Source: Naegleria gruberi (lineage: Eukaryota). Taken from it: DNA of 64,000 nt. Positions 20,901 to 56,969 of this stretch are shown here, in pieces. The stretch lies in assembly GCA_000004985.1 (NCBI GenBank), contig GG738861.1; one strand, given 5' to 3'. A program made the translations under genes and the position numbers. How positions within the stretch are numbered: position 1 is the stretch's first letter; each line of letters starts with the position of its first letter. The notes under the pieces were generated by a model. The model had not been told where the DNA came from, ran no database searches, and saw only the letters and a program-made list of their open reading frames with translations.

Positions 20901-21244
20901 TCTCGTTAATAATATGAAAAAGATTAGTTTGATAGGAGACGGTTATGTGATTGTGACTGAAACAACTCCGAAAGTGTCTAATTTGTGGAAATAAACACCA
21001 TTCGAGTCATTCGAGCTCGTAAACCCATGAAGTATAATTTCTGTCTATTATTATTGTATTACATTACGAATCACCACAACATTGAAAAAACACAAAAGAA
21101 TTCACTAAGAGAGCTCAAAATATCTGACATTGCGTTCCTTTCATTTTGGATTTACCTACCGGATAAGTTATAAAAATCGTTTTGGGATCACATATCATGA
21201 ATTTCGTGTCATTGTGAAAATTCTACTATCAAGTCTCATAAAAA

Positions 21245-21585
21245 ATGTTTCCACAACAAGCTCCACGGATTGTGGTAGAGATAAAACTTGGTAACACAGT
21301 TGCTCAATTGTTTCCAGATGGTAGCTTGAGTAATGGTTCAACCAGTATTACTGATTTCAGCGCAGTTGCACTAAACAAGCAAAACAAGCAAGTATGGGGG
21401 TTTGAAAATGACAAAGTTAAAATATTGTGCAATCAAAACCACGTTTGTAGTTATGGTCAAGTCAACCACTTGATAACAGGCAAGGGATTAAATAGGCTTC
21501 GTTCTCTTTACAATCTCGTAATAACAAAATATCTCCAACAACAGCCAAACATCACCGTTCCCAGAACCAATGCTGGTGACACCAN
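21245..21585 (+). CDS. 5' partial CDS of a hypothetical protein, interrupted by a 1020-N gap
   Basis: An ATG-started open frame of 113 codons runs into the gap. No recognisable domain. Confidence 0.3.
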
Positions 21586-28425: not shown

Positions 28426-28429
28426 GTTC

Positions 28430-38180: not shown

Positions 38181-38949
38181 AATCTCACCGACACGGAATT
38201 CACTAGACAAGTTTTCATTATTTTATGAAACAGAAAGGATAACCTTCTTAATGTTTCAAAAGATGCTAATCAAATAATTGGAAATGTTATAATCTATCAA
38301 CATTTCATTCTGTGGATCATCTTCTGAAATTCTGAATTGAATAGCAATGGAGCTTTGTTTAAAAGATAACTTGATAAGATTTGTTAATTAATTATAATTT
38401 ACAATTTTTCATGACTAACGTAATTCTCAACAATAACATACCAATTTGAAATTTGGTAAAACTGCAAATAGAATATTTTATTGGAAAGAAAAATAAAGGA
38501 GTCTAACCTTTGACTATTTTCTCGATGGAATTAGGAGATAAGGTTTTGAAAATTGGCAGATATGTTGATTACATACCAGTCTTCATATTATGAAAAAAAT
38601 TTTAAATTAAATAGTGAAGATAAAGTTAAAAATTAATCTCGAGTGCCGGGAATTGAATTTCCTAATTTGGAAGATGACTTCAACAACCAAATAACAATAA
38701 TAAATTGGGTTATTAAATTAATGTTTATTAAATAGTGACCGTTAGGTCACTGATTGTTAATTAATTATTGATGATGATTTGTTGTTGAACAGATACTAAC
38801 CACCACCGATTGTTGTCATAATATTAAACACAGAGTAATCACCGTGTCGCCAAATTCCTTGATAATTATTCATAACTGTAACTTCTTGATCAAAAGGCAC
38901 TCGAGCAATAAACAATTTGATTTCACACAGCCAAAACTCTCGTTCATAC

Positions 38950-39092
38950 TTTGGGTACCGGGAATGAAATTTCCAAATAAGGAATGACCGATATCATTCA
39001 ACTATTACTAACTCATACTCACACTAACAAAACAAATTGAACCCGGGTCGCCAGAGTGACAGTCTGGAATGCTACCACTATACCACACCCGA
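38950..39092 (-). tRNA. tRNA-Asp(GUC) gene interrupted in the T-loop by a 66-bp insertion (probably non-functional)
   Basis: The 5' part at 39092..39035 reads TCGGGTG TG GTATAGTGGTA GCAT T CCAGA CTGTCAC TCTGG CGAC CCGGG TTCAATT. After the insertion, 38968..38950 supplies TTCATT CCCGG TACCCAA A. The acceptor stem pairs 6 of 7. Confidence 0.6.
38969..39034 (-). mobile_element. 66-bp insertion in the tRNA-Asp T-loop; a short member of the family that also interrupts tRNA-Gly
   Basis: The insert is TGTTTTGTTAGTGTGAGTATGAGTTAGTAATAGTTGAATGATATCGGTCATTCCTTATTTGGAAAT. Its first ~40 nt and its GGAAAT 3' end match the ends of the 1334-bp Gly insertion. Confidence 0.5.
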
Positions 39093-40159
39093 TTTCATAT
39101 TAAGTGATAAATATTATTGAATATATAGACGTATTTTCAACAATTTTAAATAATTCTACCAACACCAATCCTGTGGTGAGATCCAGTTTCAAACCCTTTT
39201 AAAGGCATCCATTGCCCATCAGTAATTATAAACGAGTTGATCTCACAATAGTTCCTCGGACAATATTCCAATTTCCTTCAACACGTATTCTTCTTCCAAT
39301 CTCTCAAGCCTTTCCATAAATTGCAATACAATAATGATTCAGAAGTATGAATAAATTCAATAGTATCACATTTACATATAGTACATTTAGAACATGATCA
39401 GCACAGCCATTAGTTTCCCAAATTCCACTCTCTGAAAATCTTAAAGATTCAGTACTATCAGTCTCGTGTAGAAATTAACAAGAATACTGTGATAATTCAT
39501 TCACTCACAGAATTCAATTCAGTAGGTGAAAAGACAGGAAAGTTAATTTGATCTACCTTAAAATTGGTTTCCATCTTTGTCTAGAATATCACCTTAATTC
39601 ATTGAACAAGGGAATTTTCTAGAATATACATGTTAACTTTGCAAGAGCTTATTTCAAAAGATCAACTCTTGACACAAGTGGAAAATTAATCAACTCAAAT
39701 TAACAATGCTGTTCAATCACTGATGTCAAATATTAAAGGGTTCATCCCTATCCCCAATTACTATTCTCTTAAAATCACATAACTTTATCCAAAATGATTT
39801 CCAGTGTTTTCCCTTCTTCATTCCAGAATTAACTGAAGAAATATCATCCACTCAACTAATCATCTCAATAATACATGTGTTTATCTCAAATTATAATGTA
39901 AATATATCCACAGCACACAATGTTGCAACTTGAATTGATTGGAAGAGTAGAGTCACTTTGGGATGATTAAATTTGTTGTAGCCTCTCCACTAAATGTTAA
40001 ACCAACAACAACAATAATACCATCCAATGATAATCAACAATTGACGGCCCTCCAACTAGAAAGGGACAAGAAATAACGATGTGATATTACTATCAATATG
40101 TATGTGGTGGGAATTGTGTGAGCAGATGCAAGAATATTGTAGATGAAGGTTTTCTATTT

Positions 40160-41730
40160 TTTATCAAACTTGATGAATTTTTTCCATGTTGAAAATTACA
40201 GTAAGTTGTTAATTGCAATGTTTGCTGATTGTTTGCTCGTAATGTTTGATGATGTGTTGAATGAAAATAATGAAAAGTCATATTGTAAAGTTGTTCTTCT
40301 TCACTTGACTTTCCACATTTAAAAAATGACCTCTAAAATAGTTTTTTAAACTTCAATTTGACTTGCCATCAATCACATCAATCATTCTATCATTAATTTT
40401 TCATTTAAATATTTTTTTAACACACAAATCATCAATTAAAAATCAAAAAAAAACAAATCCATTCAAATTCTATAAAAATGTCATTCTGTGAAGACGTTCA
40501 AGCCCTCGTTGTCGATAACGGTTCTGGTATGTGTAAAGCTGGTTTTGCTGGTGATGATGCTCCAAGAGCTGTCTTCCCTTCAATTATTGGTAGACCAAAG
40601 CAAAAGTCCATTATGGTTGGTATGGGTAATAAGGATGCCTATGTTGGTGATGAAGCTCAATCCAAGAGAGGTATTTTAACTTTGAAGTATCCAATTGAAC
40701 ACGGTATTGTTACCAATTGGGATGATATGGAAAAGATCTGGCATCACACTTTCTACAATGAATTGAGAGTTGCTCCAGAAGAACATCCAGTCTTGTTGAC
40801 TGAAGCTCCTTTGAATCCAAAGGCCAATAGAGAAAAGATGACTCAAATTATGTTTGAAACTTTCTCAGTTCCAGCTATGTACGTCGCTATTCAAGCTGTC
40901 TTGTCCTTGTATGCTTCTGGTAGAACTACTGGTATTGTTTTGGACTCTGGTGATGGTGTTTCCCACACTGTTCCTATCTATGAAGGTTATGCTTTGCCAC
41001 ACGCCATCTTGAGATTGGATTTGGCTGGTCGTGATTTGACTGATTATTTGATGAAGATTTTGATGGAAAGAGGTTATTCATTCAATACTACTGCTGAAAG
41101 AGAAATTGTCAGAGATATTAAGGAAAAGCTCTGTTATATTGCTTTGGATTTCGAAGCTGAAATGAAGGTTGCTGCTGAATCATCATCAGTTGAAAAGTCA
41201 TACGAATTGCCAGATGGTAATGTTATCACTGTTGGTAACGAAAGATTCAGATGTCCAGAAGTCTTGTTCCAACCAAACTTCATTGGTATGGAAGCTGCTG
41301 GTGTTCATGAAACTACTTTCAACTCCATTGGTAAATGTGATATTGACATCAGAAAGGACTTGTACGGTAACGTTGTCTTGTCTGGTGGTACTACTATGTT
41401 CGAAGGTATTGCTGAAAGAATGACCAAGGAATTGACTGCTATGGCTCCTGCTTCAATGAAGATTAAGGTTGTTGCTCCACCTGAAAGAAAGTACTCTGTC
41501 TGGATTGGTGGTTCCATCTTGGCTTCATTGTCCACTTTCCAACAAATGTGGATCACAAAGGAAGAATATGAGGATGCCGGTCCAGGTATTGTTCACAGAA
41601 AGTGTTTCTAAATCTATTGATTTTGAAACAATTCAATTCTCCCAAACAAACAACAAAAACTTGTTTGTAATAAAACTATTATGTAAAATTAAAATCAATC
41701 TGAATACTTTTTGTGTTGCGAAAGAGAAAT
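40160..41730. repeat. Right arm of the actin-containing inverted duplication
   Basis: Reverse complement of 32740..34310. Confidence 0.85.
40478..41611 (+). CDS. act: Actin (377 aa), second copy, protein identical to the 32846..33979 copy
   Basis: The protein is identical. Off-frame ORFs differ at a few residues, so the nucleotide differences are synonymous. Confidence 0.95.
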
Positions 41731-42004
41731 TGAAATCTTTAACAAACTTCGAATAGGTTCAAAGTTATTATAGACAAAACTTGGAAATGAACTAAATTAA
41801 TCTTCCCTTAAATCAAAAAGATTCTCATTTACTCTCAAGCCCTTAAATAGTCATCATCAACATGTTGACTCTCTCTCGAATATTCGTCATCACCAACAGC
41901 ACGGAAGTTTAGGATGACGCACAAAAAGATATTATTCGTAAATAATGTACTTATGAATAAAATATATTTGGATCTATTCAAAAGGATCTAAAATAGAAAA
42001 AAAA

Positions 42005-44138
42005 ATGAGCAAACAAGAATTGCAGGAAACCATTGAAAAATCAACTAGCAAGACTGCTGCTGATGAGAGCAGTTTTGAAGAGGAAGAACATGAGGATATC
42101 ACTGCAGATGAACAAGTATTGCAAGATTTTTACAAGAAGGAAGCTCAGATTAAACAAGCTACTAAACCAAAGGAAGAAAAGCCGGTTGCTGCTTCTACTT
42201 ATGAAGATCAGGGAGAAGGTGCACATATGATTGAAATGCCATTAGATAAAACTAAGCTTTCCAAGACTGATATTAGGTCATTGCACAAAGATGAAGTAAA
42301 ACAAGCTAGAAAGGAATTGGACAAGCTTCCGAAGCCTCAAACTTTCCCAAATCATGCTGAAATTAGTTTCTTTGGTGCTTCAGGTACTGTTACTGGTAGT
42401 AAGCACATGATTACTTATGGATCTTTGAATGCTTTGATTGATTGCGGAATGTATCAAGGTTTGAAGGAACTTAGGTATGTTTTTTAATTCTTTCATTTGT
42501 TTTAATTAGATTAATTATCAAAGAGAGAGAAACTGGAAATTAATTTCATCATCAAAACCTGTTGAAACAATGTGTGATGCCATCATTATTACTCACTCTC
42601 ACTTGGATCACACTGGTTATCTTCCAAGGTATGTTTTTTATACAATGTTTTGATACAAATGAAAATTAAAACTATCAAAAATCATCAATCGGAATGAATA
42701 ATTTAATCTTCAATCATCATAATAATATCAAAATAGAATGGTTGCTCTTGGATTTACTGGACCAATCTACATGACAGAACAAACATTTAATTTGACCAAA
42801 CTAATCTTGTTGGATTCTGCTCGTTTACAAGAAGAAGATGCTCACTATGCCAATCACAAAGAAACTACTAAACATGAGGTTGCCCTTCCACTCTATTCCG
42901 AAGAAGATGTTCTCAACTGTTTCAAGTTGGTGAGAACTGTCAAGTATGGAGAAAAAATTGTTGTTAAAAGTAGATTGGATGAAGACAAATTCAGCTTTAA
43001 ATACTTTAATGCAGGACACTTGTTGGGATCATCGTTTGTTGAAATTACTCTTGACACAAAGGAAAAGATTATCTTTTCAGGAGATTTGGGAACTTTCCAC
43101 ACCTCCACTCCAATGCAACAACAACCTCAATTACCAATGGGAGCTGATTATGTTATTTGTGAAGCTACTTATGGTGGCAAGTCACACATTGATTTTGCAA
43201 CTGGTAGAGCTGCTGAGGATCAAGATTACATTATTGAAACTAAGGTTAAACCAGCGTTGAAACAAGCTGTTGAACATATTGTGGAAAATGATGGTGTAAT
43301 TCTTATTCCAGCTTTTGCCATTGGTCGTTCTCAAACTATTGCTTATCACTTGTTAAAGATGATGAGAGAGAAGGAAATTCCAACACTTCCTGTCCACATG
43401 AACTCTCCAATGTCAGTTGAAGCTCTTGATTTTTATCAACAATATTTATTGGACGAACATCAAAAGGATGCACACGAAATTTTGAGAGATGTCATTTGCC
43501 ATAATAGTGCTAAGGAATCTAAGGAACTTCACAAAAAGCTCAAGGATGGTTATTCTAAATGTGTCATTATCAGTAGTAGTGGTATGATGACAGGTGGTCG
43601 TTGTTTATTCCACTTTGAAGAATTGGCTCCTCATGAAAAGAACGTTCTCTTATTGAGTGGTTTCCAAGCTGAAGGTACAAGAGGTAGAGACTTGCTTAAT
43701 GGTGTCAGAGATATCAAATTATTGGGCAAGACTGTCAATGTTAAATGCCAAGTCATGCAAGTCCAAGGTTTGTCTGCTCACGGTGATACTGATGATGTTA
43801 TTAAATGGATTGAGGCTGCCAAAAATCCAAAACCAAAGATGGTTTTCGTTGTCCACGGAGAACCAACCTCACTCCGTAGTATGGCTAGAGAAATTTGTGT
43901 TGAATTGGATGTTAATGCTCTCGTTCCAAAGAGAGGTACAACATTCCACATGAGAACTGAACTCTCCTTCAGTCACAGTAGAAGAGCTAGTGTTGTTTCA
44001 ACCAATAACAGTTTACAAGATGTCATTTCAAGCAATATGCCTGATATTCCAAAACTTGGAAAGACCAATATGGTTCACGTGATGTATGCTGGTATTATTT
44101 TAATTGCCTTTATTGCCTTCCTTTTAAGATTCTTTTAA
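42005..44138 (+). CDS. Metallo-beta-lactamase fold / beta-CASP family hydrolase (RNA-processing nuclease-like) with a K/E-rich N-terminus and a C-terminal TM anchor; 3 exons
   Basis: Exons are 42005..42475, 42510..42628 and 42736..44138, separated by GTATGT...TAG introns that I traced by hand. Motifs are GASGTVTGS, HSHLDHTGYLPR (HxHxDH), FSGDLG, CEATYGG and VVHGE. The sequence ends MVHVMYAGIILIAFIAFLLRFF, a tail-anchor-like segment. Confidence 0.7.
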
Positions 44139-44403
44139 ATTATTTGTAAATATATTTGACTTGTAAATTTCATTTGAATAATAATAAATTAAGTTATCCA
44201 CAACAATAAATAGGATGCTTCTCATTATTCTCTCTGCAGAGAGTTTCATCATCCATTGCACAATTCTTACTTTTTGTTCAACGGTAATGATACAAGTCAC
44301 AATCCACGCACTGATGATGACAAACACAAAAAAATTCCCTCTAACCTAATACAACGTGCTTTCATCACAACAAATAGAGAGGAAATTTTCATCATCAAAT
44401 AAT

Positions 44404-45781
44404 ATGGTCTCTAAATTATCATCAACAAGGAGTCTGTCGTCCTTTGCGATTGTACTCACCATTTTGTTCTCCATACTCGTATTGTGTAGTGCCGCAGATG
44501 AGAAGAAAACAGTTACCAGACAAACAAAAACCAACTCTGTCTATGAAACTCATGATGTTATCGATTTAGTGGTTGAAAAGTTGTGGTCTAAATACAACCC
44601 ATCAGAAACTTATAGTTATAAACAATTACCATTTTGCGATGCTAAAGGATCAACAGATACTTCATTGGGTGAAGAACTTACTGGTAGTGCTGATTCTGTC
44701 ATTTCAAATTATGATATTAGATTTGAAGGTTTGTTATTGCTTGTGTTAATTCAATCCCACTTACTATTAATTCTTTTCAACAATTTACTTTGATTGTATT
44801 ATTTTCTTTCTAATAATAATAATACCTAACAACAATAATACAATAATTAACATTAATAATGATAATGATAATAATAATTGATAATGTAAAATTCTAGTCG
44901 ATGTTCCTGCCGAGACTGAACTTTGCTCCAAGTCATTGAACAAGGAAGATTTGTCACTTTTACGTTCCTCAATCAAGGAAGATTATCTCATGCTCATGTA
45001 TTATGATGGTATTCCAATGATTGTTCACATTGGTTATTATGACACTGTTGAACACAAGTATTATCTTTACAATAGCTACAAATTCTCTTTGACTTACAAT
45101 GGTAATCATGTTATTACTGCTGTTGCTCAACCTTCTTCCAAGGTTGATATTTCTTCCGATGATGTTACTCTCATCAAGTTTAAATATTCAGCTGAATGGC
45201 AACAAACAGCCAAACAATACGTTACACGTGTTAATTACTTTATTGGTATGAACTTTAATAGTGATGAATTGGAAATCCAATGGTTCTCAATTATTAACAG
45301 CTTGATCTTTATCCTTGTTTTGACATCATTCTTGACATTTATCATTATTCGTATGCTCAGAAAGGATTATGATGCTATGGATTTGGTAATACACTATATT
45401 GAACTCCATTATTTGTATTTGAGTATGTGGGGTCAATATGGTCACGTTCCATTCCCAATTGTTTTGATGGTTGTCTTGATTTTGATTGCTGTCACTAGTT
45501 GCATTACCATTTCTCTCATTTATTTGACTCTCTCACAAGAAAACCACAATTGGTGGTGGAGAAGTATCAAGTTTGGTGGTACTAGCAGTATTTTCGTTTT
45601 TGGTTATTCCCTCTATTACTACATTATGGAAAGTGGCATGTCAGGCACTCTCCAAACAACCTTCTTTGTTGGTTACAACTTGGTTATTGCCTTTGCTGTT
45701 TTCTTAATGATGAGTACTGTTGGTTTCCTCTCTAGTTTGACCTTTGTCAAGAATATTTATAGTTCTATTAAGTGTGAATAA
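44404..45781 (+). CDS. TM9SF/nonaspanin (Phg1)-like membrane protein, unusually short (~400 aa); 2 exons
   Basis: The signal peptide is MVSKLSSTRSLSSFAIVLTILFSILVLCSA. Exon 1 (44404..44728) has YKQLPFCDAKG. A 169-bp AT-rich intron (44729..44897) follows. Exon 2 begins DVPAETELCSKSLNKEDL...MLMYYDGIPM and ends KNIYSSIKCE, resembling the TM9SF C-terminus ...KIYSxxKxD. Confidence 0.55.
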
Positions 45782-46007
45782 ATTTGATAATTTTTGTAAA
45801 ATTCAATTAGTTTTATTCATTAATGAACGGAGCAATCTCTGTTGTTGTCAATTAGGTTGATAAGTTTGACCTTGCTCTCATTGTAAAGGAAAAAAAGATT
45901 TGAAAAAGATTGTGGAATTTCCAACATTCATCAGATAACATTCTCCGTACAACCAACTGGTGTTGATGTTTTAATAATCACACGATAAAAAACCAGCACA
46001 CACACAA

Positions 46008-48755
46008 GATGACATCACGGGGGATCAGCAAATTGTCATCCTCATCATCGTGCTCTTTCCTTTTATTTGTATTGCTATTATCATTGGCATTACTCTTAAT
46101 TAATTGTCATGCTGTTATCGGAGGTGAGTAAAATTATCATCATTATCATATCTTTACCAAATCTAAATATTGTACATTATCAATGACACAATACAATTTC
46201 ATCATCATAATCTTCTAATAGCCACTTACAAATTCCAGAGTGAATTGAAACAAATTGAAAACGGCAAAATTGTTGGTTTAGCTCAAGTGGAATATTCCTT
46301 TGAGAAATCACAACTTTTAATCAAGACTTCCTATTCATCAGAAGAAGAAGATATCGATGAAGAAGAAGCAGATAATTTATTGAAATATCAACTAGTACAT
46401 TCCAATTCATTATATTTAAATTATACCAAGTCGTTGATTGGTATTGAGGAAACCAATGATGAACCATTGAAGAATTATACACTTCCGATTGTAATTGAAT
46501 TGGGAAATTCAATTGATGGTTCAATAATAGTTGTAAATAATACGAATTATTATGTGAAAATTCCAGATTTGTTCAAGGGAAAATATGCTTTGCAAATTGT
46601 GAATCATTCTCGTGGTGGTGTTGCTTTTGGAATTTTACAAAATACTTGTGGATCTTTATCTCCAATTCAGGATTATTCAATTACTAGTTGGAAATTGTGG
46701 TTTGTTTTGGTAACTGTTTTGGGAATGTTGATTGGTTTGATTTTTGACTTGTACAGACCTTATTTTGTAATTTTTATGGCTCTTGTTTTCTTTTTATTGA
46801 GTGGAGTTTTGACATTGAAGGAGGCATTGAATGGGTTCTCAAATGATGGATTGTTGGCTATTGCATTTCTCTTCCCAGTTGTCCAACCTCTTTCTACCAA
46901 TCCAATTTTGTTGAAATTGTCAAGTATCATGTTTGGAAAACCTTGGCTTACTCCAAGATTATCCTATTTGAGAATGTTTCTCCCAATTGCCATCTTGTCC
47001 TCAATTTTGAACAATACTCCAATTGTTGTCTTGTTTTTACCAATTATTAAGGATTGGTGCAGAGCTAATGGGTTATCTCCTTCCAAGTTTTTAATTCCAT
47101 TGAGTTATTTCACTGTTGCTGGTGGTTTGTGTACATTGATTGGTACTAGTACTAATCTGGTGGTTTCAGGATTGATGGTCAATTATGGATATAGATCCTT
47201 CTCATTCTTTGAATTTATTTATATTGGTGGAATTTTACTCGTGGCTACCTTTATTTACATGATGACATTCGGATATAGTTTATTACCTAATAAGAAGGGT
47301 GGTTTATTCAAGTATGCAACTGAGAGGGCTGAAAATTTCCTTTCCCAATTGACTGTTACGGATCCACAATCTCCTCTCTTGAGAAAGAACAAGACTAAAT
47401 TATTGGAACATTTACATTTACCTAAATTGGAAATTATTGAAGTGATTCGTCCACAAGGTCGTTTTGAAGAAAGCGCCGAATCTTTGGATGATAACATGAC
47501 GGAAAAGATTGTTCCAGTTCCAGATGATTATATTGTTCAGTTGGGAGATAAGATTTTCTTCAAGGGAAGTCCAAAGGATATTATGGCCTTGCACTCAGTT
47601 ACTGGACTTTCTGATAAATTTAAGGATACTAGTATTTTCAAAGTGATTGGTACTGAAGAATTGAGAAAATCTTTGGATGAAACTACAGTCAATTTGGATC
47701 AAAATGAAGTCACTGAGGAAAATGCTCAAGAAGAAGGATCTCAACCGCAAGCAGGTGAAAATTCCCTCACTAGATTCCCAGTTCCAAAGAGTCAATTGAA
47801 ACAAGCTTTAGGTCAAGAAGAATCAGAGCCATCCAATGATCCAGAATATTTTGAAATTGTTGTAGGAACCAGTAATCCATGTTGTGGACAGACCTACAGT
47901 GAATTCTCTCAATTCTATCAAGTTGCATTATTCGCAGTGAGACATCGTGAGTCAATTATCAAATCAACCACTGATGCCAGTGACTTTTCTGAACTCAAAG
48001 TTCAAGTTGGTGATACAGTTCTCGTTTTATGCAAGGCAGATTTCTATGAGAAACATAGAGAAAGTCTCGAATTTTTCAGCATTTCTAGATGTAGTGTCAA
48101 TCCAAAAATCGATCACAGACCATTCATTGTGAAATTTAGAGGAAGAGAGTTTAACTTGTGGTGGTGGGAATATTTAATCTTTCCAATCTTTATGGCCATG
48201 ATTATTGGAGCTAGTGCTGGAATTCCAATGGTCATTTGTGCAATGGTTGCATTTGGATTGATGGTCATTTTGAAATTGCTCTCACCAACCAAAGCTATAG
48301 CCTCTGTCGATTGGGAATTAATCATTCTGGTAGCATGTTCTTTAGGTGTTGGTACTGGTATTAGAAATTCAGGCATTTCTGAAGCATTTTCTGAACTCAT
48401 CAATGCCATGAATATTCCGGATATTATTTTGCCAGCCATCATGTTCTTCATTACTCAAACCATCACTCAGGTCATTACCAATAACAGTGCAGCAGCCACA
48501 ACTCTCCCACTCGCTCTAGCATTGGCTCAATCAAGAAATTTAAACTCTCAAATGTTTGGAATTATTGTTGCTGTTGCCTCCTCCAGTGAATTTGCAACTC
48601 CAATCGGATATCAATGCAATTTAATTATTCAAGGACCTGGTGGATATGGATTTTTGGATTATGTAAAGGTGGGTCTTCCTCTCAATATGATTTACTTTGT
48701 GCTGTGTAGTGTGTTTATTCCATTAATTTGGGGATTGAGAGAACCAAACTTTTAA
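46008..48755 (+). CDS. Ion-transporter-superfamily permease (SLC13/DASS-like two-half fold) with two central TrkA_C (RCK_C)-like domains, a signal peptide and an N-terminal luminal domain; 2 exons
   Basis: Exon 1 (46008..46113) is MTSRGISKLSSSSSCSFLLFVLLLSLALLLINCHAVIG. A GTGAGT...ATAG intron spans 46114..46221. Exon 2 (46222..48755) has TM blocks flanking a soluble ~300-aa insert. The ORF-track start at 46170 lies inside the intron. Confidence 0.55.
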
Positions 48756-48813
48756 TAAATCCTTAAATAATATCGTTAACAAGTTTGAAATTTAATTAAA
48801 TCTCATATTCTCT

Positions 48814-50001
48814 TTAAGGTTGAAAACAATCGAAAAATCGTTTCTTTCTCTGCAATGCTTCACATCCATATTCCTCATAATCCGCCATAGCAACAGCCAT
48901 TTCTGCGAAGGACTCAAGGGAACCAGCAATACTTCCTCCAATCCATGATGAGTAACGTCTCTCAGGAGCTGCCACCACACTTAATCTCAATGATTTTGGT
49001 ATTAATTGTGCCAAATCATGTCTAATTCTGTCTGCCAGTCCAGGAAGGAGCGAAACTCCTCCCGAAATGATAATATTATTGTAGAGACCGTAGCGAGTGT
49101 CAATGTTTGATGCTTGCATGCTGTCTTGAATAATATCAACAATTCCTGGATATTCAGAATTAATTATTTGAGGATTGAAGAGAATTTCATTACATGTGAA
49201 ATGTTCATGAGATAGATTTAACACTTGACCATCAGGTAGCTCATACTGTTGATGTCCTTCACTAGACATTCGACTATTTTCATATTCTCTATCATAATCC
49301 TCTGCAACACGACCAATTTTCCTAATCATTTGATCCACAATTGACCTATTCCCTTCCAAACAAATTCCATGATTTTCACTCAACATTTTAATCATGTAAT
49401 CTGTAACATTGGCTCCTCCAAAATTAATCCTCCTCGTTGTATTATTATCTACAAATCCCCAATAACATGGCACTATCTGAATCACACCCTCTCCCAAGCA
49501 TAAACTCAGTGCCGTCGTTGTTCCACATGCATAGACAGACATGAGAGGTTGTGGAGAGCAGGCAAACGATCCAAATCCATACTTTTCAAAGAATAATTGC
49601 ATTAAATGATTCTTCTGTGAGGAGGGTTGTAAAATTGAATCAATGAATAGTATTGATCTCGATTCATTGTCTGAAATTTCACATTCAGAATTTTGAGTAT
49701 TTTTTGAGAGAATTTCTTGAAAGGTATAATCAAGTAAAATTTCCATCAAATCCCAATTTTTAATAATTCCATTTCGGATGGGATAGTTTAGATTGAGAAT
49801 TCCTTCTCGTTTAATTGCCTGATCACCAATATAACCTGATTTCATAGTGCAATCACTAATCATGATGGGTGAATATTTAGGTGTTCCGATACAGGAAGGA
49901 AAGACACAGCTGGGTGCATCTTCTCCTGCTATGCCTGCATAGAATGTGCTTGAACCGCAATCTAAAACGAATACTTCTGGCCACTCATCACTGAATGACA
50001 T
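48814..50001 (-). CDS. Divergent actin-related / actin-like protein (395 aa)
   Basis: The actin fold is recognisable (VLDCGSSTFYAGIAGEDAPSCVFPSCIG, LPDGQV, ISGG, SSWIGGSI) but it has insertions and is only ~30% identical to actin. Confidence 0.7.
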   Translation of the reverse strand: MSFSDEWPEVFVLDCGSSTFYAGIAGEDAPSCVFPSCIGTPKYSPIMISDCTMKSGYIGDQAIKREGILNLNYPIRNGIIKNWDLMEILLDYTFQEILSKNTQNSECEISDNESRSILFIDSILQPSSQKNHLMQLFFEKYGFGSFACSPQPLMSVYACGTTTALSLCLGEGVIQIVPCYWGFVDNNTTRRINFGGANVTDYMIKMLSENHGICLEGNRSIVDQMIRKIGRVAEDYDREYENSRMSSEGHQQYELPDGQVLNLSHEHFTCNEILFNPQIINSEYPGIVDIIQDSMQASNIDTRYGLYNNIIISGGVSLLPGLADRIRHDLAQLIPKSLRLSVVAAPERRYSSWIGGSIAGSLESFAEMAVAMADYEEYGCEALQRKKRFFDCFQP

Positions 50002-50093
50002 TTTTTTTAAATTATTCTCTTATTGGAGAGATTACAAAAAAGGTATTACAAAATCAAAATATCAATGTGAATAGTTGTGTTGTTAAAATATAT

Positions 50094-51242
50094 TTACAAT
50101 TTTTGATACAAGACTACTTGAACTAATTCCTTTCCATCATTGGCATTGGAAATTTCAATAACCTTAATTAAAGATGAATAGGAATTGAGCCACAACTTGA
50201 CCTTTTCAGTGAGTGAAAGTAAAGAGCTAATTTTTTGACTCTTTGAAGTATATGGAACTGTGAATGCCTTTGAAGCAAAGAAACCAGATGGAAGACTATT
50301 GACGTATTGATAATCGGAATAGGCAGTAATGCTCAATCTAACACCCAATTTACCGACATGTTCTCTCAATTGTTGATCCTTGAATAAATCGAATGAATAC
50401 ATTGGTTGTTGTTGTTGTTCGGTGCCTGTCTTTAAAAAGTCAGCCAAAGTAAAACATGGTGAATAAGCAATAGCAGTCTTTTGGACATCCAAAAGGTTAA
50501 CCTTGGTCTTTTTCACAATAACATAAATAAAAAAGTTGTGCAATGATTTTTGTGGATCAGAATTGACAAGAGCTTCAATTCTCTCAGTGAAGGTGGATAC
50601 CTTATCTAAGGCAGTAATGTGAACCTTCAAGTCAGGTCTATAAGTGGCACTTCCTCCAATTTCATTCTTGTTAATCTTTTGAGAAATATTTGGAATTGTC
50701 TTGTGTTGGATGATCATTTCAAAAGTAATTCTTGAACTGACTTGACCCAATGCAGTTGGATGAACCAATTGGCAATCCAAAAATCCAGAATCAATAGTAT
50801 ATTCATATAAAGTTTGAGGATTTTCAATATTGCCAATTGGATTATACTTTGGTTGGAGATAGGTATTATTTCTAGTGGTTGAATTTGTGGTTGGTGTGGA
50901 GGAAATGGACATGCTATTTACAAGACTACTCAATGAATCATTAACCGTCTCGATAATACCACGGGATGGTGGTGCCTGATTGTTAGTATTATTATTATTA
51001 TCATTGGTCATAATGGTTGATTCAACTAATGGTTGTTGTTGAGAAGGGGATGATCCGACGACAACTGGTGGTAATTGTTGTTGTTGATACATTGGTTGTT
51101 GTGGCTGTTGTTGGTTATATACAGATCCACTCATGGTAGTATCAATGGATGAATACATCAGACCATTACTTTGATCATGATCATCCAACTTGACGTAGTG
51201 TTCAGTGCTTTGTGGAGGCAAGTTATTATTGTTATTGGACAT
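50094..51242 (-). CDS. Hypothetical protein with a poly-N/Q N-terminus and a conserved-looking ~250-aa C-terminal domain
   Basis: ATG-started 382-aa ORF. The low-complexity N/Q tracts are typical of dictyostelid proteins. Confidence 0.5.
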   Translation of the reverse strand: MSNNNNNLPPQSTEHYVKLDDHDQSNGLMYSSIDTTMSGSVYNQQQPQQPMYQQQQLPPVVVGSSPSQQQPLVESTIMTNDNNNNTNNQAPPSRGIIETVNDSLSSLVNSMSISSTPTTNSTTRNNTYLQPKYNPIGNIENPQTLYEYTIDSGFLDCQLVHPTALGQVSSRITFEMIIQHKTIPNISQKINKNEIGGSATYRPDLKVHITALDKVSTFTERIEALVNSDPQKSLHNFFIYVIVKKTKVNLLDVQKTAIAYSPCFTLADFLKTGTEQQQQPMYSFDLFKDQQLREHVGKLGVRLSITAYSDYQYVNSLPSGFFASKAFTVPYTSKSQKISSLLSLTEKVKLWLNSYSSLIKVIEISNANDGKELVQVVLYQKL

Positions 51243-52233
51243 TGAGCGGGAAAGATTTTGAGATATTTTTTAAGAGTTTTGATTTTGAATAGAGATTGGA
51301 AAAGGCTCAAAATAAAGTTTGCTTGAATTTGAAGGGAATTGGAAAGAAGATAAGGATGGAAGGTTTTGTTAAGTGAAAAGGAAGAGGAATCCAAAATGAT
51401 GATAATTGCAAATATGGATTAAGGGTGTTTGACACGTGTAAATTACATATTTTAATATTTCTTAATGATGATGATGAACATTATTGAATTTTTGTGAAAC
51501 TTTCTGATGAATTAAAATTCCTTCAAGCGTATGTATGGACAATGTATTAGAATACCACATCTCTGTAATGTGATTGGAATTGTACAATGAAACAATCAAT
51601 CTATGGAATATTCCAAACCCTACCCAGAATCCTTAATCGTCATACTGTTATTCTAACTGTATTCAGTTTATATAACTACTGGATAGGAAGACTTAATCCT
51701 AACAAACTCAAAGACCTTTATATCTCTCAATGAGCGTGCAACTTGACGATATTGATGGATGTAAAAATCGATTGATAATCAAAAATACTACAGAAATTTC
51801 CTAACTGTGTGCATTCTCACCTGTTGAAAGAGATAAAACAGTGACCTCTGCTTTATATAATTGTTATAAACATCTGTGCCGATCAATCTCTCTTGATGAT
51901 TTTAAGGATAATTCACAGGATTGATGTATAGCAGCACAATATTAGCAGAGTTTACAAAAGTATTAGTGTGAAAGGAATATTCTCCATAGCCACTGTTGTT
52001 GATAATTTCTTCAAATAGTGGTTTTTTGGCCAAAATAAAACATCTTTATATTCTTCTCAAATTATAGATTCATCCAAAAAAGTCAAAAAGACGAAAACGC
52101 GATTTTATTTGGTATCCAAAACTCATTTTTAGGCAATTTTATACTGTACTATATTTGAAAGACTCGCTATGCACTTTGTGTTCTCTCTCCAAACACATAC
52201 AAAGGCTACCCATGAAAAAAAAGCCTAAACATC

Positions 52234-53748
52234 ATGTTGGCGGCAAATTATCAAAACAACAATAGCAAGCTGAACATTTCGAAGGCTTCGTTTTCGTCTT
52301 GTGAACCAAACAAGGAAGAAGTAAGCAGCATGCTTGAACAACAACAGCAACAACAACAATCATTGAATGATTCATTGGGTGTTCTCTTGTTTCATTCCTC
52401 ATCATCAACAGCACCTCCTCCTCATACAAACAATAATTCTTCTTCACCATCCACTCCAACAAGGAGACAACCATCTGCAAGAAAACAACAACAAATTACT
52501 GAATATGAAGATGACATTGTATTCGGAAAGGCTTTGGAAGTGTTGGATCTCAAACAAGGAGTTAACAAGTCAATTGTATCATCTGCTTCTGGTTCTGTTC
52601 ATTCACCTTTTAGTGTTGTTCAACAACAACAACAGAATAAGGAATGTTTTGGAGTAAATACAAGTTCTCAATTGAATGGTGGTGGTGATCCATCAAGGAG
52701 GGCAGAGTTTAATTCACCACTTCCTTCACTCTCTCCAAAGCCATTTACTAAATTAACGAGTCAGCTCTCTTCGTCATCATCCAATTCGTCATCTTCGAAT
52801 GGATCAGAAGAGACGTTATCTTCCAATTCGAATGAGGATGGAAACTGTCTGTATGGCAGTCCAAAGAAACCAAAGACACCCACCAAAAAGACATTTGCAA
52901 CCTATGATGGTTATTTGACATCTCAATCTTTCAATTCTTGCAATTCTTCAATGAATTCAATTAGTACGGGTGGTAGCAGAATTTATGATCCATCAACTTC
53001 ACCATCCATTGTTGAAAGGAGAAGGAGTAGAACACTTGCCTCGTGTGATGCCTATCAAAAGACAATAGATGACTATCTCCATATTCAATGTATTGAGAAT
53101 TATATTCCAACCATTACTAATAATTCAACGAAATGTATACAGGTCACTTTGAAAATTGATTCCTACATTAAGGGATTCGAGAGTGAGGTACTGACTGATT
53201 GTCATCCATTAGAGCACGAATGTGTTTCTCCAACATTAAGCAAGACAAAGAAGAAGGAAAAGCCACAATTTGCGAGTGTGGTTGTTTACAAAAAGAATTG
53301 TAAAAATAAGAAACATTTAGAAACAATGTTCAAGACTATGATTCTTCCACCCAACTCTACCATCAATCTTACTCCAAACAGTTGTCAAGATACAATGTCT
53401 TTGACTGACGACTGTCATAGCCCAGACTGTGTAAAGAATGTAAAAAAGCACTATAGTTACGAGATTATATCCAAAGGATTTGTCAAGGGAAATTCGAGCC
53501 CTTCCCAATCAGATTTATTTATTCCATCACCATCTAGCAATACATACGAACAAGCAGATGGCATGATGACTAGTAGCTCTTCAGAGAGCTCGTCCACCTC
53601 CTCACCAACACAATCATTCTTTGGCAGTAGCCATTCCCTGAATAGAAACCTCTCTGTAAATGAAGAAACAAGACAATGCACCACACCACCTCCAGGTTGG
53701 AATCTAGAAAGATTGAAATTCCTGTCAATAGCAGACCACGTCGATTGA
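52234..53748 (+). CDS. Ser/Gln-rich low-complexity protein; possibly the N-terminal part of a single gene with the overlapping 53676..54782 ORF
   Basis: The ATG at 52234 is real. A 504-aa ORF overlaps the next ORF by 73 nt in a different frame. Confidence 0.45.
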   Translation: MLAANYQNNNSKLNISKASFSSCEPNKEEVSSMLEQQQQQQQSLNDSLGVLLFHSSSSTAPPPHTNNNSSSPSTPTRRQPSARKQQQITEYEDDIVFGKALEVLDLKQGVNKSIVSSASGSVHSPFSVVQQQQQNKECFGVNTSSQLNGGGDPSRRAEFNSPLPSLSPKPFTKLTSQLSSSSSNSSSSNGSEETLSSNSNEDGNCLYGSPKKPKTPTKKTFATYDGYLTSQSFNSCNSSMNSISTGGSRIYDPSTSPSIVERRRSRTLASCDAYQKTIDDYLHIQCIENYIPTITNNSTKCIQVTLKIDSYIKGFESEVLTDCHPLEHECVSPTLSKTKKKEKPQFASVVVYKKNCKNKKHLETMFKTMILPPNSTINLTPNSCQDTMSLTDDCHSPDCVKNVKKHYSYEIISKGFVKGNSSPSQSDLFIPSPSSNTYEQADGMMTSSSSESSSTSSPTQSFFGSSHSLNRNLSVNEETRQCTTPPPGWNLERLKFLSIADHVD

Positions 53749-54782
53749 CCATTGGAAGTGTTCATTATGCTGGAGAGCCTTACATACCACCTGTCATTCA
53801 TCAAATTATTCTCACCATGAAGCAACGAAGAAATATCAGAGACTTGATTAATATCATTGATAACAATATTAGAAATGATTCATTCTCAATAGAAGGTGAT
53901 TGGAGACAACGATTGGATTTTCTAATCTATTCTCCAGACTCCTTCGTGTTGATTAGAGATCAAGAATTTTTACACATGATTGGAGAAGAATTTGTTGGTT
54001 TTAGCTGTTTCACTTATGCTGCCAAGAAGAGAAGAATTGACATTCTGAAAATGCTCTGTAAGGCACAACCAAGCAAGGTATATGAAAATATTCTCCTTGA
54101 TATTGAGCAATTAGAAAAGATTATAGAACTGAAAGACAATGATGTGATTAAAATCTTGATCACTGCCCTCCAGTTCCACATTGAAAATGAAAGAAATCAA
54201 AATCTCAAATTGGAAGAAGAGGGTCAAAAGAAGAAGAAACCATCCCTTTCAATCTTATTGAAAAGACCACATCACCACCACGAAGATGATGGTATTGAAA
54301 CTGAGGCATTCATTAGAAAATATGTTGCCAGAAATTTCATTTTCATTGACAATTTGAACGCAGTGAAGGTTATTTTGGAAATGAATTTAGTCACAGTCCA
54401 AATGGCAGCAAAAATTGCTGCAACCATGTCCAAGGTTAACACTTTAAGATTCCTTCTCTCTAGAGAATACATCAAGCCATGTGATTACTTTGAGGGAGGT
54501 AATGTACTCCACTGGAGCGTTCTCAATAGAGCTTCAGATGTCATACAACTAGTTTGTGGAATGAGAGCTACCAAGAAGGGCCACCGTGTTAATGTGAAAC
54601 GAGGTAGCTCCAGTCGACTTCAACCATTCAATGGCATGACAGCATTCGAAATTGCCAAGACAGTCTATGATCAAAACAAATTGTCGGATGAGGAAAAACT
54701 GATTTATGAACATTTACAACCAACCAAAGCAGAGCTTATTAAGGGTGTTGTAGAAATTGTTGTACATAAAGTTATTCATTAA
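53676..54782 (+). CDS. Ankyrin-repeat-like protein (368 aa)
   Basis: ANK-like segments are present (GFSCFTYAAKKRRIDILKMLC and GNVLHWSVLNRASDVIQLVCGM). Real ATG at 53676. Confidence 0.5.
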   Translation: MHHTTSRLESRKIEIPVNSRPRRLTIGSVHYAGEPYIPPVIHQIILTMKQRRNIRDLINIIDNNIRNDSFSIEGDWRQRLDFLIYSPDSFVLIRDQEFLHMIGEEFVGFSCFTYAAKKRRIDILKMLCKAQPSKVYENILLDIEQLEKIIELKDNDVIKILITALQFHIENERNQNLKLEEEGQKKKKPSLSILLKRPHHHHEDDGIETEAFIRKYVARNFIFIDNLNAVKVILEMNLVTVQMAAKIAATMSKVNTLRFLLSREYIKPCDYFEGGNVLHWSVLNRASDVIQLVCGMRATKKGHRVNVKRGSSSRLQPFNGMTAFEIAKTVYDQNKLSDEEKLIYEHLQPTKAELIKGVVEIVVHKVIH

Positions 54783-55251
54783 TTTATTGTCAATTTAACT
54801 CCAACATGTCCATATTCGCAATTCAAAATTCAAATGAGGTGAATGTGAGCCAAATTGGGGTAACAATTAATATTCATCTTTTTTGATCATTACTTAACTA
54901 TATTTGTACATAATAACCTGGGTTTAGAACTATGAGAATTGCGGAAGAGGTCCTCTTCATTGCTTGTACGATTATGTACAGTAATTGAGTTTGGGTACTG
55001 TCTTGTCCTTAATTAATTGATAAATTTTGCAAACAAATAAAATCGAATTCCAATTCTATTCTGGGTAGCCAAACTCACGCTGCATTACCCCAACTCTAAT
55101 ACTAATTGGTTTAAAAAAAATTAAAAATGACCCATTCTCAAAAAGAATTGGGATTAGAGGTAGTAATATTTGGATGGAAGATAGTAATTAATGTCTGGTT
55201 TTAGTGATAATCAAACAAAATGTAAAAGGAGGCTAAGAAAAGTAACTGGTT

Positions 55252-56663
55252 TGCGTCGACCGGGAATTGAAATTTCCTTTTTTGGAATTCATTTAACTTT
55301 TAATTTTATGATGAAATTATGAATTATTTATTTTAATATTATTCATGATGTGAAACATCATGTTGAATTCTGTTCATTATTTTTAATTCATGATGTGAAA
55401 CATCATGTTGAATTATTAACAAATGTTGTTCTTCAATTTTTCATTGAATGTTGTTCTTTCAATGAATGTTGGAATAAGTGTCCAGTATATGATAGAATTG
55501 TTAATACAAGTAAGTTTTCTATTATTTTATATTTATTAATTGACTCACGGGTAATGGAATTTCCTTTTTTGTAAATCATCATGATTGATGATGATTGATG
55601 ATGATTAAATAATAATAATTTATTATTTTATAGATGATGGTACAATTAGATTTGTTAGTACATATCCTAATTGTATTTTAAAGAAAGAAAATTCACCAAC
55701 TAAAATTGAAGATATTATTCGTGAATATGAAGATGTAAAAGTTGTTTTAAATGAATTAGGTAAATCAACAACAAAAATTTATTCATCAGATACAACAAAA
55801 CATATGAATTTCCTAAAAGTTTTATTTATTTATGTAATGGTAATATTAAATATGATCAATCATTAAATATATCACAAGGAATTTATACAATTAAAATTCA
55901 AGATGATGAACATGATCACAAATATTATTATTTATTCGGAAGAGGTTTATTATTTCTATCAATTACATTACAAATGATTCCAACATTTAGTTTAAACAAG
56001 TATTATTATGAAATTGTATTGAATGATTTAAGTAACACATATTTTGATAAGAATGAAATTATTCAATATAAAATTGAAATTTTGCCATCAAATATTATTC
56101 AACAATATTCTAAACGAAAGTTTCTTGTTAGAAAAGATAGTCAAAAGAACTCAAGATTTATTACATATCAACCTGACGCTCAATCACCATCAAAGAAAAC
56201 AAAGAAGAATAACATTATTGAAAGTGATATTGAAGATTTCGATTGCAATATTAAAGATATTGATGATTGGGTATAGGGAAACGGAATTTCCTAATTGGGA
56301 ATGTCATCACACAATAAATTAAATTTATTATTTATTCATTGATGTTCACAAACTGTGAATTAACACATTACATGATGAAACAATTCAAACATTTACTCAA
56401 ACTTTAAACATTAACCATCGGGTAACGGATTTTAATACATGTACTAGTATGTTTATTAATTGGTCGACGCACATAAATTTAAATAAACAAAATTAACAAG
56501 ATTTTAAACAAAATCCTACATAGAGTTGGAGAACGGGAAATGAAATTCCCAAATTGAAATTGAGAAACAACTATTCATTTCACAATAATTCATACTATCA
56601 AAATGAATTGAACCCGGGTCACGGCGATGGCAACGCCGTATTCTACCACTAAACCATCGACGC
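55252..56663 (-). tRNA. tRNA-Gly(GCC) gene split by a 1334-bp insertion in the T-loop
   Basis: The 5' part at 56663..56606 reads GCGTCGA TG GTTT AGTGGTAG AATA C GGCG TTGCCAT CGCCG TGAC CCGGG TTCAATT. The 3' part at 55271..55252 reads TTCAATT CCCGG TCGACGC A. T-stem and acceptor are perfectly complementary, and TTCAATT is present at both junctions. Confidence 0.8.
55272..56605 (-). mobile_element. 1334-bp insertion in the tRNA-Gly T-loop, probably composite. Contains AT-rich ORFs and several internal 'GGAAAT + tRNA 3'-end-like' junction motifs
   Basis: It starts CATTTTGATAGTATGAATTATTGTGAAATGAATAGTTG..., similar to the Asp insert start, and ends ...CCAAAAAAGGAAAT next to the duplicated TTCAATT. 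There are no terminal inverted repeats. It carries a 100-aa ORF (55974..56276) and palindromic tcatgatgtgaaacatcatg direct repeats at 55343 and 55389. Confidence 0.55.
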
Positions 56664-56969
56664 TTCTTGTTAAGATATTAAGGTTCCTTAATTTAATATA
56701 AGGAATATCCAAAATGCTTAAAGTACAACACAACAAGAATTGAGTATTCGTTTGAACATGCTGTAAAATATTTCAAATTATGCTAAGATCATTTGATGTA
56801 TTTAATGCCATAGGGCATTGAGAGCCATCATTTGAAGATTCAAATAGTATGTTCTTGATTTTATCTGATAAAGCACAAGAATAACATTTCATCCACTAAA
56901 TTTTATAAATGTTGACTGTGTTACATAATAGTATTTAATTATTATTGAAATGAGGATAACAATAAATTA

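Follow-up and report, generated by a model that had tools for sequence, protein, structure and literature searches.

Eukaryotic mobile elements that occupy one fixed position inside tRNA genes are rare, and our literature searches turned up a single DNA-transposon example, the Dada superfamily (Kojima & Jurka, 2013, PMC3706591; Kojima, 2022, PMC8869645). Dada elements have fixed insertion sites inside tRNA and small nuclear RNA genes, create 6–7-bp duplications and lack terminal inverted repeats, carrying instead subterminal inverted repeats that are also present in the target (Kojima & Jurka, 2013, PMC3706591). Dictyostelid and yeast retrotransposons that target tRNA genes (TRE5, TRE3, DGLT-A, Skipper-2 and Ty3) integrate at a distance, either up- or downstream, so that the gene itself stays intact (PMC5006619). 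Here, we analyze a 64,000-nucleotide stretch of the Naegleria gruberi genome (assembly GCA_000004985.1, contig GG738861.1; hereafter, the window), whose only two tRNA genes, tRNA-Asp(GTC) and tRNA-Gly(GCC), are both interrupted. Both were probably cut at the T-loop by one family of short, non-coding, site-specific mobile elements, now nested and rearranged. These are best described as a T-loop-specific variant of the target-specific mobile elements of small-RNA genes, present here as non-autonomous nested copies. In the searched literature, we found no description of T-loop-specific elements, or of such elements in Naegleria or other Heterolobosea.

The two split genes and all junction sites described below lie on the minus strand. 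The 5′ part of tRNA-Asp(GTC) extends from position 1 to the T-loop (39035–39092, with the loop TTCAATT at 39041 to 39035) and is completed by the 3′ part TCAATT CCCGG CACTCGA G at 38638–38656. Similarly, the 5′ part of tRNA-Gly(GCC), which ends with the T-loop TTCAATT, occupies 56606–56663, and its 3′ part, TTCAATT CCCGG TCGACGC A, is found at 55252–55271. The insertions measure 378 bp in tRNA-Asp and 1334 bp in tRNA-Gly, and both lie within the T-loop (B box), between the same nucleotides. When the insertion and one copy of the T-loop are deleted, ARAGORN recovers a perfect 71-nt cloverleaf at each locus. The T-loop is thus repeated on either side of the insertion, as TTCAATT (7 bp) in the Asp locus and TTCAATT(C) (7–8 bp) in the Gly locus, and this doubling looks like a 7–8-bp target-site duplication or the overlap of a site-specific recombination.

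Standard predictors do not report these genes as such. ARAGORN's sole call on the window is a 72-nt tRNA-Gly(GCC) at 56593–56664, which is an artefact: its 3′ acceptor strand is drawn from the insertion, and the real 3′ half lies 1.3 kb off. Rfam detects no tRNA in the window at its gathering score or at the looser E ≤ 5, and the families that it lists at E ≤ 5 are only spurious microRNA and small nucleolar RNA matches. A group I intron or other known RNA family within the insertions was rejected, as it has no Rfam support at this threshold. Two weak mir-3533 matches (41285–41368 and 33089–33172; 33 bits versus a gathering score of 104) fall inside actin coding regions and are false positives.

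A preliminary description of this DNA, made from the sequence alone, had reported a junction of GGAAAT, T-loop, T-stem and 7-nt acceptor that recurs at seven sites. To count it, we scanned the window with the pattern GGAAATTYMDTTNCCCG, allowing at most two mismatches, and labeled the sites J1–J7 by coordinate. Six matches were obtained, compared with 0.29 expected, and none of 100 shuffles reached six. All of them are on the minus strand (38646–38662, 38958–38974, 55261–55277, 55548–55564, 56275–56291 and 56534–56550), as is the seventh site, J6, a degenerate version with TAAAAT in place of GGAAAT. The seven sites fall in the Asp and Gly loci only. The recurrence thus holds, the positions originally given (38647, 55545, 56281, 56414 and 56534) are correct, and four of the sites (J4–J7) are indeed nested inside the Gly insertion. 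An extended right-end motif, TTCC-N5-7-GGRAAT, is present at J1, J2, J3 and J5 and occurs elsewhere in the window only at 26300, within an open reading frame (ORF), where the match is due to chance.

Two of the seven sites are primary junctions. J1 (38645–38662) joins the true tRNA-Asp 3′ part to the element end at 38657–38662, and its acceptor forms seven of seven pairs with the Asp 5′ strand, including one G·U; J3 (55259–55277) joins the true tRNA-Gly 3′ part to the element end at 55272–55277. The site at 38647, previously listed as additional to the split tRNAs, is therefore the Asp 3′ half itself, for which the preliminary description appears to have taken J2. The remaining five are pseudo-junctions: J2 (38957–38974; GGAAAT TTCATT CCCGG TAC(CCAA)), J4 (55546–55564; GGAAAT TCCATTA CCCGT G(AGTCAA)) and J7 (56532–56550; GGGAAT TTCATTT CCCGT T(CTCCAA)), each recognized by pattern match and alignment; J5 (56273–56291; GGAAAT TCCGTTT CCCTA T(ACCCAA)), a pattern match that overlaps the stop codon of a plus-strand ORF; and the degenerate J6 (56417–56434; TAAAAT CCGTTA CCCG ATGG(TTAA)), recognized by alignment and homologous to the J4 side.

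A minus-strand alignment of all seven sites yields the shared sequence T.C.AA.T.GGAAATT.CATT.CCCG.....CAA, in which CAA is kept in at least five of the seven. The five pseudo-sites co-align over ~40 nt, including the supposed acceptor, with the consensus TTCC-N6-GGAAAT / TYCRTTW / CCCG-N5-yAA. This similarity bears on the interpretation first proposed for the locus, namely that elements inserted into several tRNA genes, whose 3′ fragments were then transduced or recombined so that each junction represents a different tRNA 3′ end. Several features are in line with such a history. Each pseudo-site has a T-loop-like heptamer followed by CCC(G) and ~8 more bases, a T4 run resembling a tRNA trailer follows J2 and J7 within 13–20 nt, and the only differences between J2 and the Asp 3′ half are transitions and a single deletion. 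Moreover, copies of the Dada-tL family with flanks from different tRNA genes have been documented.

The acceptors, however, are not all different, as had been assumed: J2 and J5 share the heptamer TACCCAA, and together with J7 (TCTCCAA), J4 (GAGTCAA) and J6 (TGGTTAA) all five end with AA (CAA in J2, J4, J5 and J7; TAA in J6). Real tRNAs with these ends would have to start with UU, and in four cases with UUG, which is atypical. Furthermore, A58 of both true T-loops is replaced by T or a gap in all five pseudo-sites, and the "acceptor" bases of J5 are the final codons and stop of an ORF on the opposite strand. A search of the 64 kb for cognate 5′ halves returned no complementary 5′ acceptor strand with an A box for any pseudo-site; the only 5′ halves bearing a B box are those of tRNA-Asp and tRNA-Gly. 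With the Asp 5′ strand, the J2 "acceptor" forms five Watson-Crick pairs, one G·U and one mismatch, next to a 6-nt loop, and that of J7 pairs at three of seven positions with the Gly 5′ acceptor strand.

From the shared consensus, the lost A58, the J5 stop codon and the missing cognate 5′ halves, we conclude on sequence grounds that the five pseudo-sites are mutually homologous and represent an element-borne, T-arm-like junction core rather than the 3′ ends of five different tRNAs; only J1 and J3 are tRNA 3′ halves. Thus, the idea that an element end was fused to tRNA 3′ sequence by insertion into tRNA genes stands, while repeated capture from several tRNA genes is improbable; the core may instead go back to transduction of one ancestral tRNA-like 3′ fragment. 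In the favored single-family reading, the recurring motif would be the right terminus of the element abutting its target, with J1 and J3 as primary junctions, and the other five sites would show the same terminus set against a T-arm-like TYCRTTW CCCG-N5-yAA. This core could be the T-stem-mimicking left end of a neighboring unit or an internal target mimic, and would have been multiplied by nested or tandem insertion and rearrangement. For annotation, it follows that five of the seven "tRNA 3′ ends" are not to be counted as tRNA pseudogenes of different families. External B boxes of the Dictyostelium type, expected some tens of nucleotides downstream of intact tRNA genes, were also considered and rejected; the motifs lie between the halves of split genes, and neither tRNA gene is intact.

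The two insertions share a common architecture. Read in the sense of the tRNA, the order at both loci is 5′ part, T-loop, unit Y, pseudo-site, segment Z, a decamer that we term M′, body, GGAAAT, T-loop and 3′ part. The left regions are homologous, with 38907–39111 and 56491–56681 aligning at 64% identity (E 1e-11) from the 5′ part to ~190 nt downstream. Y generally comprises 61–66 nt, starts with YRTTTTGWTAG and ends with TTGGRAAT. Y(Asp) (38969–39034, 66 nt, from TGTTTTGTTAG to TTCCTTATTTGGAAAT) is bounded by TTCAATT and TTCATT and is homologous to Y(Gly) (56545–56605, 61 nt, from CATTTTGATAGTATGAATTATT to TTTGGGAAT), which was delimited by alignment with the Asp locus. Y is followed by TTCATT(T) and then by Z, which starts with CCCG.T..CCAA, contains a T4 run and ends with TTTAT(T)G. 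Z(Asp) (38906–38962, ~57 nt, CCCGGTACCCAA...TTGTTTATTG), whose start is T-stem/acceptor-like, aligns with Z(Gly) (56472–56537, CCCGTTCTCCAA...AAATTTATG). Next comes M′, which reads CTCGAGTGCC in the Asp locus (38896–38905) and TGCGTCGACC in the Gly locus (56462–56471). The body of the Asp element, X(Asp) (38657–38895, 239 nt), starts with (C)TTTTGATCAAG..TATGAATAATT, resembling the start of Y(Gly), ends with TTCCAAATTAGGAAAT and holds a short ORF tail and the hairpin CAGTGACC..GGTCACT. The right terminus, TTCC-N6-GGAAAT, is conserved and abuts the T-loop.

The Gly insertion is nested. Its outermost unit (55272–55542, from CAATTAATAAATATA to TTCCAAAAAAGGAAAT) starts with the 15-mer that is found after M′ and includes a perfect 45-bp tandem duplication at 55341–55414 with the hairpin CATGATGTGAAACATCATG present twice. 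This 15-mer, CAATTAATAAAYATA, follows both M′ and J4. The ~900 bp between its two copies contain J6, J5, J4 and an orphan ORF fragment, and look like a later addition; without them, the Gly insertion would have about the size of the Asp insertion. The orphan fragment (55609–56276, plus strand, antisense to the tRNA) comprises ~215 codons with one frameshift and is enclosed by J4 and J5. It contains no Pfam domain, and a search of 1.84 billion representative proteins matched it, apart from itself, only to a 44-aa ORF of a related strain. Ten small ORFs and P0012 were looked up by exact sequence with no useful result, and all 33 matches of a Joint Genome Institute metagenome scan for tRNA T-loop, Y and junction were due to chance.

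A second allele of part of the Gly locus is available on a 559-bp contig (L038) of the metagenome assembly ENA ERZ929261, from a strain with ~98% identity in the flanking genes. In this allele, the sequence corresponding to window positions 55475–56179 is exchanged for ~98 bp with another junction-like site (GGTAAT TCCATAA CCCG), and only the last ~32 codons of the orphan ORF fragment are kept. In addition, an extra inverted copy of the J5 unit directly follows M′, so that J5 is present in both direct and inverted copies, and M′ itself reads TGTGTCGACC, with a C-to-T change. Because a strain of such high identity differs in the structure of the locus, the comparison of the two sequences indicates that the Gly locus was rearranged recently, after the two close strains parted. 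A further contig of the related strain (L039) is collinear with the window up to 38144 (98%) and diverges at 38145, ~500 bp before the tRNA-Asp 3′ half; its positions 632–936 are unrelated sequence, with a translation read by eye as ...KPGRPRYSGK, and suggest a different insertion or rearrangement.

These data also bear on the view that the interruptions are not mobile DNA but are normal for tRNA genes of this species, as T-loop introns or as split genes whose halves are joined as RNA. Non-canonical and permuted tRNA genes are known, for example from Cyanidioschyzon and Nanoarchaeum, and in such genes removal at the RNA level would go through a bulge-helix-bulge that complementary flanks form. 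Both tRNA genes of the window are broken at the same nucleotides, and a 29-nt inverted repeat (76% complementary) connects the region just after the Gly 5′ half with a point ~25 nt before the Gly 3′ half. The Asp locus, however, shows no comparable complementarity, and the structure is not constant between the 98%-identical strains. Moreover, the insertions measure 378 and 1334 bp, include an ORF fragment and repeated junctions, have T4 terminators directly after the 5′ halves and are flanked by the doubled T-loop, a signature of DNA insertion. Taken together, these features make an origin as introns or split genes very improbable.

The most interesting part of the insertions is the host-matched M′. 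In both elements, it is the exact 10-nt reverse complement of host tRNA positions 64–73 (38905 to 38896 for Asp; 56471 to 56462 for Gly), and it represents the sole other copy of this decamer on both strands of the window (128 kb), even when one mismatch is allowed. From base composition, the expected number of such copies within the insertion is 1.7e-4 for Gly and 4.8e-5 for Asp. The two M′ sequences differ exactly as their hosts differ, and no comparable inverted 10-mer partner accompanies any of the five pseudo-sites, which is a further point against their origin from several tRNA genes. In the Asp locus, M′ and its partner form the inverted repeat ctcgagtgcc/ggcactcgag (38638–38647 and 38896–38905, respectively; 100% complementary) that had been said to mimic an acceptor stem. 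We found this to be the case, as the repeat closes a 10-bp helix in the predicted Asp fold, and detected its counterpart, so far unnoticed, in the Gly locus.

Several simple origins of M′ were considered. The bases that flank its 7-nt acceptor complement pair with N73 and with G64/G65 and do not match the tRNA's own positions -1 and 8–9, and M′(Asp) has an A opposite T69, where the real 5′ strand has a G. Because of these flanking bases and the A opposite T69, M′, as judged from its sequence, is not a remnant of a tRNA 5′ end. For the same reason, we rejected a tandem second tRNA with M′ as its 5′ acceptor strand, since positions -1, 8 and 9 fit the 3′-strand partners at both loci (chance ~2e-4). 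A hairpin (P-nucleotide) footprint was rejected as well, given arms that are separated by 240 bp and 1.2 kb and that terminate, at both loci, at fixed positions of the tRNA. Within the bodies, sense-strand tRNA-like fragments are not significant.

The helix between M′ and its target, M, is part of the minimum-energy RNA folds of both loci, although in the Gly locus the pairing with 55252–55261 spans 1.2 kb. In the Asp fold, the 10-bp helix adjoins the hairpin GGAA-AUUCAA-UUCC (z = -4.3), whereas the hairpin beside the helix in the Gly fold is TTCC..GGAA. Given that M′ changes between the elements exactly as the hosts do, we infer that its mode of action is base pairing with the tRNA 3′ strand. 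Such pairing could help to choose or retain the target, or could give the element transcript a tRNA-like end; M′ itself is explained by none of the models that we tested. One unlikely extension is that M′ is a 10-nt, host-family-specific "guide" that pairs with the 3′ side of the acceptor/T-stem, in either the tRNA gene or its transcript, and directs insertion into the adjacent T-loop or, alternatively, rebuilds an acceptor/T-arm domain for tRNA-processing enzymes, in which case RNase P, RNase Z and the CCA-adding enzyme would excise and finish the element RNA. If true, this would represent a programmable, tRNA-gene-specific mobile element in a eukaryote, without a described counterpart. Covariation of M′ across many tRNA families, if found, would reveal guide-like recognition or tRNA mimicry, both of which are experimentally tractable.

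The window contains no transposase, reverse transcriptase or recombinase ORF, and we therefore read the insertions as non-autonomous copies. As for the enzyme acting on them, three routes each fit part of the data, and each leaves something over, mainly the succession of Y, pseudo-site and Z to the left of M′. We tentatively rank first a DDE transposase that would act in trans by Dada-like cut-and-paste; this proposed route would explain the duplication most simply and has a close precedent. A retroelement comes second, as an unlikely alternative, and site-specific recombination, less likely again, comes third.

The resemblance to Dada concerns several features. For Dada, too, the target is a single fixed position within small-RNA genes that occur in many copies, among them the tRNA genes of the protist Perkinsus; here, this position is the T-loop of both genes. 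Their 6–7-bp target-site duplications compare with 7 bp in the Asp locus and 7–8 bp in the Gly locus, although a recombination overlap would look identical. Like the elements described here, they have no terminal inverted repeats. They carry a short subterminal sequence in inverted repeat with target-gene sequence next to the insertion site, to which M′ is an ambiguous counterpart; they also share tandem or nested insertions, copies flanked by mismatched tRNA fragments and family-specific tRNA targets. In contrast, the T-loop is not among the tRNA sites reported for Dada, which are the A box/D-loop (TAGCTC) and, if we read the tRNA-Leu duplication GCGTTCA correctly, the anticodon loop. Dada elements are 4.7–11 kb long and encode a DDE transposase (DDE + C/DxxH, with zinc fingers), whereas the units observed here are non-coding and span 60–400 bp, and no Dada element has been reported from Heterolobosea.

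A number of observations weigh against a single family of duplication-generating insertions. The case is built from two loci and one partial allele, no terminal inverted repeats were found in the insertions, and the window holds no autonomous copy. The left end of the element is inconsistent, since Y and X begin with YRTTTTGWT and the remaining units with CCCG..CAA, and beyond the ~40-nt core the similarity between units is weak, with some alignments not significant. A simple duplication-type insertion does not account for the position of M′ 130–150 nt inside the insertion, for its end exactly opposite N73, or for the change at A58 that both loci show in the T-loop copy between Y and Z. M′ and M also depart in their geometry from that of the Dada subterminal repeats, which are present at both ends and equidistant from the duplication: M′ is complementary to target sequence 3 nt beyond the duplication, has its partner in the target only, and has no second copy at the other end. 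Finally, a profile built from five Dada transposases retrieved 44 proteins, mostly fungal and none from Naegleria, among the 8000 word-sharing candidates that were scored. Membership in the Dada superfamily is thus not established. Tandem duplication of the whole split-gene unit was rejected because units 1 and 2 of the Asp locus align significantly only through the junction core, and a 20-bp duplication of positions 54–73 is loose for Asp (15/20, by eye) and fails for Gly (13/20, with an unrelated acceptor).

The retroelement route assumes a mobile RNA that extends from M′ to the host N73, in which the helix of M′ with positions 64–73, together with the GGAA/UUCC hairpin, would mimic a tRNA's acceptor/T-arm half. 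The unit would be released from a read-through transcript by RNase P and RNase Z, CCA would be added, and the 3′ 20 nt, which equal the tRNA 3′ half, would anneal to the nicked T-loop of the cognate gene, where they would serve as primer for reverse transcription. On this view, it is understandable that at both loci the ends of M′ lie exactly opposite N73 and G64, and that M′ fits its host in both subfamilies. The predicted plus-strand order, namely the reverse complements of the 3′ half and of the body followed by M, is found, and the Asp fold shows the 10-bp helix with the adjacent 4-bp hairpin. The C-to-T change of M′ in the related strain would retain a G·U pair in RNA. The units are alike only in their ~25–40-nt 3′ end, in the manner of short interspersed element (SINE) families, which may share only the tail recognized by the reverse transcriptase of a partner long interspersed element. 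In addition, all pseudo-sites deviate from the true T-loops at A58, and m1A58 is a position at which reverse transcriptases misread.

Against this route, CCA follows none of the copies, and a reverse transcriptase is missing from the window. It further predicts a direct succession of 5′ part, T-loop and M′, where Y, pseudo-site and Z intervene, and RNA polymerase III would terminate at the T4 runs with which Y and X start. In the Gly locus, M′ and M are 1.2 kb apart, and the hairpin beside their helix is no mimic of a T-arm. Site-specific non-LTR (long terminal repeat) retrotransposons such as R2 offer a partial parallel, as they share a fixed site in a conserved RNA gene, co-transcription with the host gene, host sequence at the RNA ends that anneals to the target (28S sequence in the case of R2), and common 3′ ends. 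Unlike R2, the Naegleria insertions lack ORFs for a reverse transcriptase or endonuclease as well as an A-rich or repeat tail, are not 5′-truncated forms of one master copy, and are flanked by the same TTCAATT duplication at both loci.

Two further retroelement classes were rejected. A tRNA-derived SINE, characterized by a tRNA-related head with A and B boxes, a LINE-related tail and dispersed copies whose duplications vary, does not fit, as the 5′ parts are halves of real genes with their exact 3′ halves downstream, and there is no shared body or A-rich tail. LTR retrotransposons and their miniature forms (TRIM), including Helenus, are characterized by TG..CA direct repeats, a primer-binding site complementary to the tRNA 3′ end including CCA, a polypurine tract and a 4–6-bp duplication (PMC10886601). 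Here, no terminal direct repeat pair or second LTR is present, M′ covers positions 64–73 only, without a CCA complement, and is preceded by TG rather than TGG, and the duplication measures 7–8 bp as against the 4–6 bp of this group. The tRNA-targeting retrotransposons introduced above (TRE5, TRE3, DGLT-A, Skipper-2 and Ty3) and the external B boxes of Dictyostelium share with the present case the use of tRNA genes, or of B-box-bound TFIIIC, as landmarks in a compact protist genome; unlike there, the gene itself is split within the B box.

Site-specific recombination would involve a tyrosine or serine recombinase, with the T-arm CCGGG-TTCAATT-CCCGG as attB and a palindromic GGRAAT-N3-4-ATTYCC as attP. 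The doubled T-loop would then be the crossover overlap, the pseudo-sites would be attP-like junctions of tandemly integrated circles, and deletions or inversions between them would give rise to the strain differences. Prokaryotic integrases classically cross over at such a place in tRNA genes, a 7-nt loop with symmetric stems on either side, as Williams reportedly described in 2002. All seven junctions are imperfect palindromes (GGRAAT..ATTYCC/TTTCCC), and the arrays of junction sites, the inverted J5 copy and the segment replacement in the related strain would also be in keeping with such a mechanism. Moreover, a few degenerate tyrosine-recombinase retroelements have been reported in N. gruberi (PMC3266345).

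The left junction, however, departs from the hybrid site that this route predicts (tRNA, overlap, CCCG..CAA), unless Y was inserted later at both loci, and the pseudo-site overlaps TCCGTTT, TCCATTA and TTCATTT differ from the T-loop, which tyrosine recombinases tolerate poorly. Recombinases yield inversions but not inverted duplications; M′ is left over, and no recombinase gene is present in the window. Integrative elements of prokaryotes, such as phages and integrative and conjugative elements with tyrosine integrases, do resemble the insertions in their 7-nt T-loop or anticodon-loop crossover between symmetric stems with the loop at both junctions, in the displaced tRNA 3′ fragment at the far end and in tandem arrays at one site. 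They differ in that they carry a faithful tRNA 3′ end, which keeps the gene intact, whereas here the sequence that follows the 5′ part cannot pair (three of seven positions in Gly, with Y in between). Their integrase gene is adjacent, while here we are dealing with a eukaryotic nuclear genome and a window devoid of recombinase ORFs. Accordingly, a tyrosine-recombinase integrative element was rejected despite its fitting position, as it has neither a replacement tRNA 3′ end nor a recombinase ORF.

Genome-wide confirmation of the family would extend the known range of target-specific elements by a target site and a lineage, both new, and provide a natural test of how a mobile element recognizes a tRNA gene. 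It would also explain why tRNA predictors miss or mis-call genes in this genome, as illustrated here by the forced 72-nt Gly call of ARAGORN and the blank Rfam result.

The genomic surroundings of the two loci are those of an ordinary host region with a GC content of ~33%. Of eight ORF translations looked up by exact sequence, six are identical to proteins of strain NEG-M (EFC45734–EFC45736, EFC45850, EFC45851 and EFC45853) on a scaffold of 507,294 bp, which rejects the yeast or dictyostelid origin first guessed from the GC and gene content. The genes encode giant EGF/REJ proteins, actins, an actin-related protein, a beta-CASP nuclease, a citrate-type transporter, an EMP70 protein, a subtilase and an RWP-RK protein. 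A homologue search for a neighboring gene of 570 aa returned nothing useful. The region from 20000 to 24000 has a GC content of 25–26% and contains long overlapping ORFs on both strands (21245–22655) with no Pfam match; it is probably of low complexity. Genes of very large size, whose products combine teneurin-type EGF repeats with REJ domains, are clustered at 2770–8016, 13198–20900 and 23572–31428 and show extensive repeats within and between genes (for example, 14989–15868 versus 17747–18626, 96%). The window further includes an inverted 1.56-kb duplication (32747–34306 and 40164–41710, 96.5% identity), each arm of which carries an actin gene for an identical 377-aa protein, and the split tRNA-Asp gene is located in the ~5.9-kb segment between these two arms.

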